This document shows positions 3,440 through 7,349 of a stretch of DNA of 42,378 bases, piece by piece; within the stretch, counting starts at the first letter, position 1, and every line of letters starts with the position of its first letter. The translations under genes were made by a program, and so were the position numbers. The stretch lies in the sequence record PV660458; one strand, written 5' to 3'. The DNA is from Escherichia phage LF82-23. A model generated the notes under the pieces. That model ran no database searches. It saw nothing but the letters and a program-made list of their open reading frames with translations, and was not told the DNA's origin.

Positions 3440-3791
3440 CATCCACTCGCGTATGGGTGCAGTGGAGGCTCGTATGCAATCCGTAGAACTTCGACTCGAC
3501 AAGCACGAGGTACAAATCGCGACCCTCGAAAAGGGTGATGCTGCAATGCTGGCCAAGTTAGCGGAGAACGATACCCGCTGGCAGACGGTTCAACAGCAGC
3601 TCCTTGTGGTTGAGCAAATTCAGGACATTCAGAAGACTATGAGCCACATCGGTAAGTTGTTCACGGCGGCGGCTCACGCTGTCAAATGGTGTCTCTTAAC
3701 TGCATCCCTGTGTAGCGGTATCTACTTAGCAATCAAGGCTGGTGACTTAAGCTCACTGCAAGCCTTCATCACTACACTACTGGGGATGTAA
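3408..3791 (+). CDS. membrane protein, holin candidate
   Basis: 127-aa ORF; predicted coiled-coil N-terminal region then hydrophobic C-terminal segment (AAAHAVKWCLLTASLCSGIYLAI); stop overlaps endolysin start (TAATG). Endolysin lacks a signal/SAR sequence, so a holin is expected here. Confidence 0.4.
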   Translation: MTEAKKEPTPNIHSRMGAVEARMQSVELRLDKHEVQIATLEKGDAAMLAKLAENDTRWQTVQQQLLVVEQIQDIQKTMSHIGKLFTAAAHAVKWCLLTASLCSGIYLAIKAGDLSSLQAFITTLLGM

Positions 3792-4327
3792 TGACTAACT
3801 TTGAAATCTGTATGCGGTTCACCGGGCTGGCAGAAGGTGGTTACACCAAGCTGCCCGGCGATACCGGAGGGGAAACGAATCATGGAATTAGCGACGCTCG
3901 TGATGGCAAACTGGATGGCCGAGCTTGTGGTGTCCCTACTGGGCTTGGCGGCACTATTTGTGTACCTATCAAGCAGCTCACCAAAGCACAAGCCGAAGCA
4001 ATCTATCGACGGGATTACTACACCCCCATCCGAGGTGACGAACTTCACCCTGCGATTGCATGTGCCGTGTTTGACTACGGTGTCAACTCCGGTGTCTCCC
4101 GTGCGGCGAAAGCTCTACAGCGGGTATGCGGCGTTGCACAAGACGGGATTGTTGGCCCTGCTACCGTGGCAGCAGCCAAACGTCTGGAACCTCACTCCGC
4201 AGCAGCAGCCATCTGTGACCTTCGTATTGCGTTCCTAAAGGCTTCTACAGCCCCGACAGTGGTTCGCTATAGGGATGCCTTGGTTGCTCGTGCAAAACGC
4301 TGTAGCGCTTACTGTGCGACGCTGTAG
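3791..4327 (+). CDS. endolysin, glycoside hydrolase family 108-like N-terminal domain plus C-terminal peptidoglycan-binding-like domain
   Basis: N-terminal motif FTGLAEGGYTKLPGDTGGETNHGI matches the GH108 EGGY...D.GG.T..GI signature; C-terminal region resembles PG_binding_3-type domains; last gene before the non-coding terminus. Confidence 0.8.
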   Translation: MTNFEICMRFTGLAEGGYTKLPGDTGGETNHGISDARDGKLDGRACGVPTGLGGTICVPIKQLTKAQAEAIYRRDYYTPIRGDELHPAIACAVFDYGVNSGVSRAAKALQRVCGVAQDGIVGPATVAAAKRLEPHSAAAAICDLRIAFLKASTAPTVVRYRDALVARAKRCSAYCATL

Positions 4328-4544
4328 GGGTATCCGAAAGCTGATGCAATGAACAGGCCGTGGGTGCAATACCCCGGCTTGAAAATTGACTATTTGTACG
4401 TGCCCCTCCCTCGACCCAAATGACCGCGCGTGCCCCCATAGCGTGTGCGCGGTTTAGCCTCGCGACGTGCGCGATAATTGCTCGCGTGCGCTGCGCGGCG
4501 CGTCGAAAGGATTGCCTGCGTGCGGTATAGCTCGTGCGTGTCGC

Positions 4545-4900
4545 GTTTCATCGTCTGCCGTGTGGCGTGCTGTGCGCTGTCCTGCTGGCTGTGCTGTGCG
4601 GTGCTGTCCTATGGGGACGCTCTGCGCTGGCTGGCTGGTGCTGTGGTAGCGGTGCGGTCGGTCGGGTATCTGTCTCTTTTCGTGGCGCGGCGTGGTGCTG
4701 TGTGGTGGCGGTGGTGCTGCGTGGTGCTGTCCTGTCTGCTGGTCTACTGTCTGCGCCTGCCAGCTCTGCGCGTCGTGCTCTGCTACCTGCTGTTACTGTC
4801 CTACTGCCTTCACTGTCTGCCGTCTGTCAGTCCTACGGTCTGCCATCCGTCATCCGTTCGGCGCTCGCTTGTTTCGGCTGCGCCGCGCTCGCTCTGCGTA
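4545..4900. other. A-depleted, GT- then CT-rich low-complexity non-coding block
   Basis: Roughly 5% A on the + strand by eye over about 350 nt (e.g. 4681-4740 contains no A); degenerate short repeats (GCTGTG, GGTGCTG, CTGTC); ORFs here exist only because stop codons need A. Confidence 0.7.
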
Positions 4901-5060
4901 TCTAGCGATACTATATCACTATAGACACTTTCATAATTATCTATTGATATCAGTAACTTATAACCTATCTGATAACGGTATTCTGACCAGTGTTATGATT
5001 ATCTAATCAAACTTTAATCCTAATGATTACAGTAACTTATCACTTTTCTTGAAAATAATA
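4901..5060. repeat. AT-rich block with clustered short GATA/TATC-type palindromes (candidate terminus/ori/packaging region)
   Basis: TTGATATCA, TATCTGATA, TGATTATCTAATCA, CAGTAACTTAT x2 seen directly; lies between the A-depleted block and the early promoters. Confidence 0.5.
4919..4934 (-). promoter_or_regulatory. inverted copy of conserved 16-mer ATGAAAGTGTCTATAG (candidate phage RNAP promoter element)
   Basis: Reverse complement of 4919-4934 is identical to 25618-25633; extended match about 27 nt with one mismatch. Confidence 0.35.
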
Positions 5061-5061
5061 C

Positions 5062-5091
5062 TTGCAAACTGTTTTGGTTTTGTGCTGTAAT
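5062..5091 (+). promoter_or_regulatory. sigma70-type early promoter P1
   Basis: TTGCAA (5062-5067), 18-nt spacer, TGTAAT (5086-5091) preceded by TGn extended -10. Confidence 0.6.
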
Positions 5092-5165
5092 TCATCACGT
5101 CGAAAGGCACTAGCCCAGTAGACAAGATTGAACGGTAACACTGCTCTTTAACAATCTGGAGTGTA

Positions 5166-5194
5166 TTGACAAGGCAAGCTCACTATGCTGTAAT
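5166..5194 (+). promoter_or_regulatory. sigma70-type early promoter P2
   Basis: TTGACA (5166-5171), 17-nt spacer, TGTAAT (5189-5194) with TGc extended -10. Confidence 0.7.
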
Positions 5195-5302
5195 GCTTCC
5201 ACGTCAGCCAGCAAGCTAAACAGTCATTGATAAAGACGTTAAAACACACGCAGGCAAACTGGTACGGGTTATTCATCTCAGAACGGGCGCTGAATAAAAC
5301 GG

Positions 5303-5331
5303 TTGACAGGATGAAACGAGTATGCTGTAAT
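5303..5331 (+). promoter_or_regulatory. sigma70-type early promoter P3
   Basis: TTGACA (5303-5308), 17-nt spacer, TGTAAT (5326-5331) with TGc extended -10. Confidence 0.7.
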
Positions 5332-5382
5332 ACGCTCCAGATTGACAGGGCAGCAAGCCAGTCAGTCAGAAGTAAAAAGTAG

Positions 5383-5411
5383 TTGACACGCTGAATACGA
5401 TGTGATGTAAT
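5383..5411 (+). promoter_or_regulatory. sigma70-type early promoter P4
   Basis: TTGACA (5383-5388), 17-nt spacer, TGTAAT (5406-5411) with TGa extended -10. Confidence 0.7.
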
Positions 5412-5843
5412 CAGCACCGAGTTGAAAGGTTGCAAAACAACCTGCTCTGAGTGAACGTAAACAGGCCACGTAGTGTCTCGGCCTCATGGGTATCCGGCGC
5501 AGCTAGGAACTGGTGAGGGCACCGCCGAAAGGCAATAGGGGTAGCGCCCGGTGCGATGGGAACGGAGAAGCGCGATAGACGCAGCGCAGTATCAGCACAA
5601 TCCCGAACGTCTTATAAGGCGCGGAGTGAAGCGGGTAGGTAGGCAAGCTGGTAACGGTGAGCCGGACTGCTGGAGGACTCCTGAGAGTGGATGCAGACAA
5701 TATCCACGGCGCGAAATGGGCGGGGCGATTTTTCAGGGTAGTGAATCCGACAAGCCAATCAATGCCAACGAGTGCAGACTGTACGGCGCGTCACAATGGG
5801 TTCACTATCCACCTGAAAATAGCCAACAACTGGAGAAATTAAT

Positions 5844-6233
5844 ATGTACCGTATCTATGCAAGCGCATATCGTCAGGGCAACGCTGAGTCAGTCAATCTG
5901 GCGCTTCATTGCAAGGCACTGCGAACGGTGCAGGACATGTTCGGAGTGGTTCCGGTCACACTGACAGGCAAGTTCGACAATGCGTATGAGTTAAGCATGG
6001 TCTTCCCTGTCGATGGAATCTACGAAATCCGACAGGCTGTTAAGCTGTTTTGTAAAGCCTTCGAACAGGACTGCATCATGGTAGTGACCAAAGACGACGA
6101 TGCAATCTTCATGGACTCACCGTATCCGGGTAAGCCTGCTGGCAAGCTGGTCAGCAAGACTAACGAGGAAATGGAAGCCGGGCAGCATACCGCTTGGACT
6201 TACGATGGTGAGCAATTTTGGGTAGTGGAGTAA
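5844..6233 (+). CDS. hypothetical early protein (129 aa)
   Basis: First ORF after promoter array and leader; GGAG 9 nt upstream of ATG. Confidence 0.6.
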   Translation: MYRIYASAYRQGNAESVNLALHCKALRTVQDMFGVVPVTLTGKFDNAYELSMVFPVDGIYEIRQAVKLFCKAFEQDCIMVVTKDDDAIFMDSPYPGKPAGKLVSKTNEEMEAGQHTAWTYDGEQFWVVE

Positions 6234-6244
6234 GGAGCATGACT

Positions 6245-6316
6245 ATGTTCACTGCACTGTGTGTTATTGCGGCGGCGTGTTGGGTTATTGACCAGCGCCT
6301 GCCTAAGCGAGCCTGA
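6245..6316 (+). CDS. tiny hydrophobic peptide (23 aa), candidate small membrane protein
   Basis: AAGGAG (6232-6237) 7 nt upstream of ATG 6245; peptide MFTALCVIAAACWVIDQRLPKRA; below the 60-aa floor of the ORF track. Confidence 0.3.
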   Translation: MFTALCVIAAACWVIDQRLPKRA

Positions 6317-6317
6317 T

Positions 6318-6401
6318 ATGTGGGACTTACTGGTAGCGTTATTCTGGTTCGTCTTTGCAGGCTTGTGGATTTACTGGCTGACTCGTCCCAAATTATGGTG
6401 A
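6318..6401 (+). CDS. tiny hydrophobic peptide (27 aa), candidate single-pass membrane protein
   Basis: ATG 1 nt after the stop of the preceding tiny ORF (possible coupling); peptide MWDLLVALFWFVFAGLWIYWLTRPKLW has an 18-residue hydrophobic core. Confidence 0.3.
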   Translation: MWDLLVALFWFVFAGLWIYWLTRPKLW

Positions 6402-6465
6402 CTGCCTAATGCGTCTTGCGAGGCGCATTGTGAAGTAACCAACCAACAACCCGACGAGGTGTATC

Positions 6466-6993
6466 ATGACTACTGTTAAATATACTGCATTCAAAGACGC
6501 TGCCGCTCTGGACAAGGCTATTGAGTCTACCGTCAAGAAGGCGCACTCACTCCGTAACGAGATTCAGAACGTTGCGGTCGGTATCATCCTGCACGCTTAC
6601 CATCACGGCGACTACACTCGTGCTGAATCCTTCGTGAATCAGCTCGGTCAGGGTGTCCGTGGCAAGGCGCTGGTAGACTGGTTCGTCAAGTTCGGCGGCC
6701 TGATTATCGGTGAGAACGGCGGTAAACAGGGCTTCATCGGCTGGCAGGGCGCTGAGTACATCAAGGCGAACATCGACACGGCCAAAGCCACCATGTGGTG
6801 GAGCATGAAGCCTGAGCAGGCGTTCGAAGGCTTCGACCTGCAAGATGCGCTCGAAAAGCTGATTGCCAAAGCTGAGAAGGCGCTGAACAAGGCCAATGAG
6901 CTGCGTCACGAAGGCAAGGACGAAGACGCGAACAAGGTAGTCGTGCCGCAGAACGTCCTCGACCTGCTGCGCAAGGCTAAACAGGCTGCCTAA
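6466..6993 (+). CDS. hypothetical early protein (175 aa)
   Basis: ORF with GAGGTG 6 nt upstream of ATG; preceded by hairpin AATGCG-N10-CGCATT (6408-6429). Confidence 0.6.
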   Translation: MTTVKYTAFKDAAALDKAIESTVKKAHSLRNEIQNVAVGIILHAYHHGDYTRAESFVNQLGQGVRGKALVDWFVKFGGLIIGENGGKQGFIGWQGAEYIKANIDTAKATMWWSMKPEQAFEGFDLQDALEKLIAKAEKALNKANELRHEGKDEDANKVVVPQNVLDLLRKAKQAA

Positions 6994-7007
6994 GCGGGAT
7001 TGACTCA

Positions 7008-7045
7008 AGCCAGTGTCACGGCGCTGGCTTTATGGCAATTCTGCC
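7008..7045 (+). promoter_or_regulatory. conserved early intergenic unit 1: hairpin (AGCCAG/CTGGCT) + GGCA-N4-TGCC element
   Basis: Stem 7008-7013/7024-7029; GGCAATTCTGCC 7034-7045; 34 nt from GGCA to ATG of next gene. Confidence 0.5.
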
Positions 7046-7067
7046 CCAACCATTTAGGAGCTTCACC

Positions 7068-7349
7068 ATGTCTATCAAAACTGTAACTGCTTTCATCACC
7101 AAACGCGACGGCGAACTGTACGGCTTCGCTGTGTCTCTGAACGAAGGCCAGTACCTGCACCATGTCCGTGAAGACGGCGAGCCGACTGAGGCTGCTGGTA
7201 TTCTGGAAACGCTGGCTGGTATCCCGCTGCCGCATGAGTTCATCATCATGCTGGCTGAGCAGGACGAAGACGAGCTGAAAGCGCGTCACGGTAGCGGCCT
7301 GACGCTGGAAGAAATCGGCACCTTCGAAGCCGAGGTTGACGACGAGTAA
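7068..7349 (+). CDS. small acidic early protein (93 aa)
   Basis: AGGAG 9 nt upstream; ORF-track start 7032 lies inside the conserved upstream element, so the downstream ATG was chosen; acidic C-terminus (EAEVDDE). Confidence 0.6.
   Translation: MSIKTVTAFITKRDGELYGFAVSLNEGQYLHHVREDGEPTEAAGILETLAGIPLPHEFIIMLAEQDEDELKARHGSGLTLEEIGTFEAEVDDE

Follow-up and report, generated by a model that had tools for sequence, protein, structure and literature searches.

Small proteins of the bacterial inner membrane act by binding larger membrane proteins (reviewed in PMC12648545). KdpF (29 aa), YohP (27 aa), MgtS (31 aa), MgrB (47 aa), AcrZ (49 aa) and CydX (37 aa) each consist of one hydrophobic helix, some 20 residues long and charged over a short stretch at one end, and proteins of this kind are often overlooked by annotation. 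In phage T7, the tiny early product gp0.4 inhibits FtsZ (PMC4944311), and gp0.5, a hydrophobic protein of 47 aa assigned as a putative membrane class I protein, is uncharacterised (PMC12798971). Sets of predicted small phage genes and catalogues of intergenic small open reading frames (ORFs) (for example GMSC, PMC11364881; Enterobacteriaceae ismORFs, PMC11188072) contain unannotated frames found by conservation, many of them with predicted transmembrane (TM) segments. This article describes two adjacent tiny ORFs, ORF1 (23 aa) and ORF2 (27 aa), located at positions 6245-6401 of the DNA of Escherichia phage LF82-23 (sequence record PV660458; the whole stretch of 42,378 nucleotides (nt) that was analyzed is referred to as the window).

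Conservation across related phages strongly supports ORF1 as a protein-coding gene, and ORF2 is probably coding as well. The reading favored here, to which a probability of about 0.6 is assigned, is that both are genuine tiny genes of the Bonnellvirus early operon and that their products are inner-membrane microproteins, with the N-terminus out and the C-terminus in, which bind a host membrane component. A first-pass annotation of the window, made from the letters alone, had noticed the pair and read it as coupled membrane peptides that may serve in host takeover; that interpretation is partly supported by the results described below.

The locus resembles the 0.4/0.5 region of T7 in that an anti-restriction gene comes first (0.3, encoding Ocr, in T7; S-adenosylmethionine (SAM) lyase in T3 and in the window) and is followed by a coupled tiny gene and an RNase III site, putative in the window. 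In T7, the start of gene 0.4 overlaps the final base of the 0.3 stop codon, and the gp0.5 gene is found two genes after the anti-restriction gene. However, gp0.4 is a soluble protein of 51 aa and gp0.5 is twice as long as ORF1 or ORF2, has two hydrophobic segments and is served by a minor promoter of its own; neither shows sequence similarity to the peptides studied here, and Bonnellvirus belongs to a lineage of the Autographiviridae other than that of T7, one that has a 32-nt hairpin motif in common with the KP34-like Drulisvirus. Unlike the bacterial small membrane proteins, ORF1 and ORF2 are phage-encoded, early and without homology to them, and the helix of ORF1 is shorter (15 residues). 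The type I toxins IbsC (19 aa), ShoB (26 aa) and TisB (29 aa) are similar to the pair in length and in hydrophobic-helix composition, but ORF1 and ORF2 occur in the early operon of a lytic phage and not at a chromosomal toxin-antitoxin locus, and ORF1 has conserved polar, Cys and Trp positions. In contrast to the entries of the small-ORF catalogues, the family is confined to one phage genus and was not retrieved from the protein collections searched. Small hydrophobic early phage proteins and unannotated small ORFs are already known; the ORF1/ORF2 family is new and has no known relatives.

Conservation and Coding Selection of ORF1

ORF1 (MFTALCVIAAACWVIDQRLPKRA) extends from 6245 to 6316 on the plus strand, including its stop codon TGA (6314-6316). 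It was recovered by tblastn from 18 records. Of 18 related genomes compared, 17 carry it intact, in each case flanked by the SAM lyase gene and the downstream gene gp2; the one exception is a deletion in phage HHU8, and stops occur in the other frames in relatives. The phages concerned infect Escherichia coli, Enterobacter, Cronobacter, Kosakonia and Pantoea, and further copies were found in three IMG/VR contigs and one metagenome contig. None of the related records annotates ORF1. Neither tiny ORF is annotated in any related GenBank record, since genes of fewer than about 30 codons escape the usual gene callers, and the suggestion that genes had been missed at this place is thus borne out strongly for ORF1.

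The 11 distinct nucleotide versions of ORF1 encode nine peptide versions, in which M1, A4, L5, C6, A9, A10, C12, W13, D16, Q17, R18, L19 and R22 never change. Among the 19 codons free of gaps, variable sites fall at 12 third, seven first and three second codon positions, and the dN/dS ratio (nonsynonymous to synonymous rates, NG86) is 0.14. Synonymous changes make up 18 of the 29 distinct single-base variants, where 24% would be expected under the null (P=1.4e-5); neither of the other two frames shows such an excess (P=0.73 and 0.96). The nine replacements accepted in the hydrophobic part (F2S, T3A, V7I, I8V/L, A11L, V14L/A and I15V) alter the predicted membrane-insertion energy by a mean ddG of +0.07 kcal/mol, whereas the mean over every possible replacement is +0.88 kcal/mol (P=0.008). 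On this comparative evidence ORF1 is strongly supported as a gene under purifying selection at the amino-acid level. A structured RNA covering both ORFs was also considered as the conserved element and rejected: the folding energy of the region does not surpass that of shuffled sequence (z=-0.98), and Rfam gives no match.

Translation of ORF1 probably starts at ATG 6245. The Shine-Dalgarno (SD) sequence AAGGAG occupies 6232-6237, overlapping the SAM lyase stop codon TAA (6231-6233), and is separated from the start by the 7-nt spacer CATGACT, as the first-pass annotation had it. An alternative in-frame ATG at 6239 would prepend Met-Thr; the downstream start is preferred because the codon at 6239 is spaced from the SD by a single nucleotide and half of the relatives lack it. 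In other genomes the purine-rich SD reads AAGGAG, AAGGGGG or AAGGGGA, 6-7 nt upstream of the start. A second type of junction (GGAGGCGTAATATG) also occurs, in which GGAGG is present and ORF1 starts 1 nt after the SAM lyase stop, so that the design GGAG-TAA-GGAG-CATGACT-ATG of the window, with its own SD, is found beside GGAGGCG-TAA-T-ATG. To judge from these sequences, a start signal for ORF1 is kept across both designs.

The peptide is composed of a hydrophobic N-terminal segment of 15 residues followed by a basic tail. The tails (PKRA, SKRA, SRRRG, SKRRG) vary in length and sequence and stay basic and in frame throughout, so that the hydrophobic core with basic tail that had been read from the window alone turns out to be a conserved design. 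The run A-A-A-C12 was examined as a possible lipobox and dismissed: no Lys or Arg precedes the hydrophobic core, which leaves the n-region uncharged, and phages RZ4, Lidtsur and Kc261 carry Leu at position -1 (A-A-L-C), which the pattern [LVI][ASTVI][GAS]C does not allow. ORF1 has no match in Pfam, NCBIfam or PHROGs.

Distribution and Coding Status of ORF2

ORF2 (MWDLLVALFWFVFAGLWIYWLTRPKLW) occupies 6318-6401 on the plus strand and begins one nucleotide (T6317) past the ORF1 stop, which confirms the spacing and the lengths of 23 and 27 aa first reported for the pair. It lacks a clear SD, which fits termination-reinitiation after the ORF1 stop and agrees with the translational coupling that had been suggested. 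The ORF finder listed a longer, GTG-initiated version; ATG 6318 is taken as the start because this extension is closed by stops in the glasur-type genomes.

The distribution of ORF2 is narrow. Its only carriers are the window and phages glasur, forsur, usur and ROV85, in which the peptide is 100% identical and unannotated; the remaining genomes are short by about 85 nt at this site, and among the 17 related records with ORF1, 13 lack ORF2. Judged by these comparisons it is an insertion, about 85 nt long, specific to one lineage, an accessory and no fixed partner of ORF1; the description of a two-ORF unit thus holds for the window and four other phages and not for the genus as a whole. All three base differences among the copies are synonymous in the ORF2 frame (null probability 0.19 each, P=0.0065), and in the other frames the same differences are synonymous in one of three and none of three cases. 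Small as this sample is, ORF2 is probably coding, and its status as a missed gene (five genomes, three of three changes synonymous) receives moderate support.

The IMG/VR genome IMGVR_UViG_2751185941 (L018/L033) encodes a SAM lyase 100% identical to that of the window, carries the short form of ORF1 with the tail SRRRG and has no ORF2; in a comparison of positions 5844-6470, the 3' half of the window region matches the glasur-type phages. Because the phage with the identical SAM lyase has the short form, this indicates that the window is a recombinant with a crossover inside or just after ORF1.

ORF2 has no significant match in Pfam, NCBIfam or PHROGs, the sole match being phrog_9199 (E=0.11). 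No homologue was found with a 46-aa query extended to the GTG in a full HMMER scan of 1.84 billion representative proteins, nothing was retrieved with the 50-aa concatenate of both peptides from an index of 5.8 billion proteins, and ORF2 had no matches, as DNA or as protein, in IMG/VR, plasmids or E. coli genomes. A scan of bacterial genome contigs for its core, FWFVFAGLW, gave three matches, two of which (L060, L061) look like inner-membrane proteins of the YccF family, with the TM motif NIIWFVFAGFWLA...H. The likeness to YccF is regarded as chance, the match being forced by the search pattern and Pfam having assigned ORF2 to no family.

Predicted Membrane Character

When all ATG-initiated ORFs of 20-35 aa in the window, 126 on the two strands together, are ranked by their most hydrophobic stretch of 15 residues, ORF2 is first and ORF1 second. 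The pair is more than a chance occurrence: the top two in hydrophobicity are adjacent and lie in a real non-coding gap.

Residues 4-22 of ORF2 form a 19-mer with a Hessa dG of -1.9 and a Wimley-White octanol value of -18 kcal/mol, in the range of KdpF and YohP, and nine of its 27 residues are aromatic. ORF2 is therefore predicted to be a clear TM helix, rich in aromatic residues, of 18-19 residues and with a basic C-terminus. For ORF1 the hydrophobic stretch of 15 residues gives a dG of -1.8. The claim of single-pass membrane peptides is accordingly supported, by prediction, for ORF2 on the 19-mer; for ORF1, where the value is reached with a 15-mer only, it is plausible and not secure.

The orientation of membrane proteins follows their positively charged flank (the positive-inside rule). 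Since the C-terminal flank of both peptides is net positive, the N-terminus being uncharged or acidic, an N-out/C-in topology is predicted for both.

Early-Region Context

The window is a genome of Bonnellvirus (Autographiviridae). The 1.3 kb around both ORFs have matches of 83-93% identity in 19 phage records; those that are classified belong to Bonnellvirus (J8-65, the Danish '-sur' phages, ROV85, RZ4 and Kc261). Together ORF1 and ORF2 fill a gap of 232 nt, one of the few real non-coding gaps of this compact genome. Upstream of it lies the gene for a SAM lyase of 129 aa (5844-6233, plus strand; Pfam PF23780 S-AdoMet_lyase, E=1.4e-27; phrog_2226), whose homologues in related phages are annotated as 'anti-restriction SAMase'. 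The gene downstream, on the same strand, is gp2 (6466-6993, 175 aa; phrog_1448, E=3.5e-51), a 'hypothetical protein' in all relatives, which is preceded by the SD GAGGTG (6454-6459).

Three tandem putative sigma-70 promoters were read from the sequence of the plus strand at 5166-5194, 5303-5331 and 5383-5411, that is, 430-680 nt upstream of the tiny ORFs. They share an identical design, with a perfect -35 element TTGACA, a 17-nt spacer and the extended -10 element TGnTGTAAT, and are likely analogues of the T7 promoters A1-A3. The automatic consensus scan demands A at the second position of the -10 hexamer and thus missed all three, which have G there. With these promoters upstream and the SAM lyase gene directly 5', the tiny ORFs are placed, by sequence context, in an early region transcribed by the host RNA polymerase, as had been suspected.

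Between the endolysin gene (3791-4327; the lysis cassette is thus away from the tiny ORFs) and the promoters, positions 4400-4900 are GC-rich and G/T-skewed and contain many short repeats of CTG/GTG type together with spurious Cys/Leu-rich ORFs of 104-148 aa. This segment is probably a genome-end or terminal-repeat region. A repeat of 259 bp is annotated at the left end of the J8-65 record.

The Hairpin at the 3' Boundary

On its 3' side the slot that holds the tiny ORFs is bounded by an RNA hairpin on the plus strand (6396-6441; -19.5 kcal/mol, z=-3.8). A lower stem pairs 6396-6403 with 6434-6441 and includes the end of ORF2, from its final sense codon through the stop; beyond an internal loop, an upper stem of 10 bp pairs 6407-6416 with 6421-6430 and is closed by the UNCG tetraloop UGCG (6417-6420). 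The z-scores obtained for the hairpin range from -3.8 to -4.8. The 31-nt core occurs exactly in 36 IMG/VR contigs, mostly of KP34-like Drulisvirus, where it is present in 2-3 copies per genome; no second copy exists within the window.

Covariation supports the structure. Among 51 unique contexts, 6.67 of the eight lower-stem pairs can form, compared with 3.40 in controls that set the 5' flank of one class against the 3' flank of another; pairs were counted on ungapped 59-nt windows, since a gap placed by MAFFT in the 3' flank broke the register. At least five unrelated lower stems are each self-complementary (TAATTAC/GTAATTA, GGTTAAT/ATTAACC, CTGAT/ATCAA, TAGT.GCA/TGC.ACTA and GGTA/TACC), and compensatory changes are found at four pairs of the upper stem, including the two that set the window apart. 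In each arrangement the lower stem takes up, in its 5' arm, the stop codon of the preceding ORF: in the short form it is that of ORF1 (GGC-UGA), in the window that of ORF2 (UGG-UGA), in the more distant contig L050 that of the SAM lyase gene, and in the Drulisvirus hairpins a UAG or UAA of the upstream ORF.

The upper part of this covarying two-stem hairpin is a 32-nt motif common to Drulisvirus and Bonnellvirus. The motif, AGCCTATAGCGTCCTACGGGGCGCTATGTGAA, was published as a putative phage promoter of Kp34likevirus (PMC4411677). That assignment can be discarded, as KP34 RNA polymerase gave no transcription in vitro from a template with the motif and the true KP34 promoter is TAATGTTACAGGAGTA (Lu et al., PMC6834552). 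An intrinsic terminator is rejected too, there being no U-tract. An RNase III-type processing or stabilizing element is suggested instead, because two stems, an upper one of 10-11 bp and a lower one, are divided by an internal loop and stand directly after the SAMase mRNA unit, as in the R0.5 site of T3. As at the RNase III sites of T3 and T7, the ORF upstream terminates at the edge of the lower stem or within it. Unlike them, the hairpin of the window has an unrelated sequence, a UNCG tetraloop and a core that is near-invariant over two genera, which is unusual for such sites. No paper in the literature searched ties the AGCCTATAGCGTCCTACGGGGCGCTATGTGAA motif to RNase III.

Chimeric contexts were observed in three Drulisvirus contigs of IMG/VR (L026, L038 and L043), which combine the 5' flank of one hairpin copy (TAATTAC) with the 3' flank of a second (TGCAACT), leaving a broken lower stem with 1-2 of eight pairs. 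It looks as if recombination between two motif copies had removed the intervening genes.

Proposed Role and Alternative Explanations

According to the favored reading, the three sigma-70 promoters would drive ORF1 and ORF2 in one transcript with the SAM lyase gene, an mRNA unit delimited at its end by the RNase III-type hairpin. ORF1 would be translated from its own SD or, in half of the genus, by coupling to the SAM lyase stop, and ORF2 by termination-reinitiation. Both peptides would insert into the inner membrane, N-out/C-in, and the helix would bind a host inner-membrane protein and modulate or block it early in infection, in the manner of MgrB, AcrZ, KdpF and MgtS. Host takeover, exclusion of competing phages or the countering of a membrane-associated defence are the purposes that such binding may serve; a role in takeover or inhibition, as the first-pass annotation proposed, is speculation from position and analogy. 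ORF1 would be a genus-wide, dispensable component of this system and ORF2 an orphan accessory that one sub-lineage gained between ORF1 and the hairpin.

Several observations weigh against this reading. In Escherichia phage HHU8 (locus ~780-865) a clean deletion of 57 nt has left only the last codons of ORF1, the SAM lyase stop now being TAG, and from this natural deletion it follows that ORF1 is dispensable. Contig L050 (IMGVR_UViG_3300045988_005061, 42.4 kb), a more distant relative whose SAM lyase and gp2 are 31 and 65% identical to those of the window, has the same synteny and neither tiny ORF: SAM lyase gene, hairpin and gp2 follow one another, with the SAM lyase stop codon inside the lower stem, an arrangement that may be ancestral. 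The coding evidence for ORF2 comes from five near-identical genomes and three substitutions. Windows of 17 or 19 residues on ORF1 take in D16, Q17 and R18 and cost +4 to +6 kcal/mol, so that ORF1 may cross the membrane as a short helix or be anchored to it, perhaps at the interface, and is no textbook span. Finally, neither peptide shows homology to any characterised protein in the collections searched, and for this reason target and biological role are speculative.

Other explanations of the locus were weighed against the same evidence. That ORF2, or even both frames, are not genes, the insert of about 85 nt being a non-coding recombination remnant at the hairpin boundary and ORF1 a nucleic-acid element, is considered unlikely. 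For ORF1 it is excluded in practice by the synonymous excess confined to its frame (P=1.4e-5), together with the unstructured nature of the region. A non-coding status is conceivable for ORF2 only, which is found in five near-identical genomes, has no homologue or clear SD and ends (GGTGACTGCCTA) much as the short form of ORF1 does (GGCTGATAGCCTA), a resemblance suggesting that the insertion was made by recombination; its changes, however, are synonymous in three of three cases in its own frame only, its hydrophobicity is the highest among the tiny ORFs, and it starts exactly 1 nt past the ORF1 stop. It also seems quite unlikely that translation itself is all that matters, with the ORFs acting as leaders or spacers through which ribosomes cross the 230-nt gap and stop inside the lower stem, the peptides being by-products. 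Such translation would shield the early transcript from Rho and RNases, or would tune RNase III processing and the translation of gp2, and it would account for the fact that the last upstream ORF of every architecture has its stop codon within the 5' lower-stem arm and for ORFs that are lost or gained without apparent harm. It fits poorly with the dN/dS of 0.14, with the invariance of C6, C12, W13 and DQRL and with replacements that preserve hydrophobicity; a pure spacer needs no top-ranking hydrophobicity in the genome, and in both T3 and L050 the hairpin lies directly past the SAM lyase gene with no tiny ORF between them.

The size and composition of the peptides raise the further thought of membrane-damaging toxins, of the Ibs/ShoB/TisB/Hok class or pinholin-like, which would depolarize or permeabilize the inner membrane early in infection with no specific partner. 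With 23-27 aa, a hydrophobic helix and a charged end they look like type I toxins, their hydrophobicity is near that of IbsC, KdpF and YohP, and ORF2 is extremely aromatic. Still, this is judged very unlikely. The invariant polar, Cys and Trp positions of ORF1 suggest recognition and not bulk damage to the membrane, and the lysis cassette, with the endolysin gene, lies elsewhere. No antisense or antitoxin feature was seen, in an analysis that included no search aimed at antisense RNAs; a consensus promoter scan of both strands of 4300-7100 gave no promoter-like site, a scan that also missed the three early promoters. T7-like phages need host energy and the host RNA polymerase for entry of their genome, and by this general T7 biology an early depolarization would harm the phage.

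Tiny ORFs Beside Drulisvirus Hairpins

The early regions of Drulisvirus contain unrelated hydrophobic ORFs of 23-30 aa with good SDs, located directly 5' of the hairpin copies. Examples are MSVEFMVIITAVVLLFVVAGEYL, MGIEFMVIITAIVLLFVVVGEYI, MILDIDAVLIIFMLVIAMIAACIR, MSMELVGLILAVVLLIVVISESRYL and MMTFLAVVGALFLTGPILRLLFIILFVSKK; ORFs of this kind were seen at loci L024, L052, L048/L057 (KpV48 record, 2160-2310), L023, L054, L032 and L044. In KpV48 two such ORFs stand in tandem, unannotated. One of the tiny ORFs occurs in eight Klebsiella phage records, four of which annotate a hypothetical protein at this site; variants differ by conservative substitutions, and annotation is sporadic.

A broader idea, possible but rather unlikely on present evidence, is that the hairpin-bounded slot of both Bonnellvirus and Drulisvirus is a landing pad where unrelated TM microgenes are born, swapped and stacked, each with its stop in the lower stem. 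Across the genomes the slot is seen without tiny ORFs, with ORF1, and with ORF1 and ORF2. If the idea is true, the hairpin would be an mRNA-processing signal and a recombination boundary at once, and the slot would hold a fast-evolving arsenal of early membrane-targeting effectors, possibly for anti-defence or exclusion, that is invisible to current annotation.

Implications

By comparative evidence, a gene of 23-24 aa is under selection at the protein level across a whole phage genus, adjoining an anti-restriction gene in the part of T7-like genomes that is devoted to disarming the host. The related phages form a natural series for comparison, with neither ORF in L050, ORF1 deleted in HHU8, ORF1 alone in most of the genus and both ORFs in glasur and the window; HHU8 in particular is a ready-made natural knockout of ORF1. 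For relatives of Klebsiella therapeutic phages, a conserved motif gains a testable identity as an RNA-processing hairpin. ORF1 itself, as a synthetic peptide or a gene of 72 nt, would offer a cheap handle toward a host membrane protein that these phages may manipulate.

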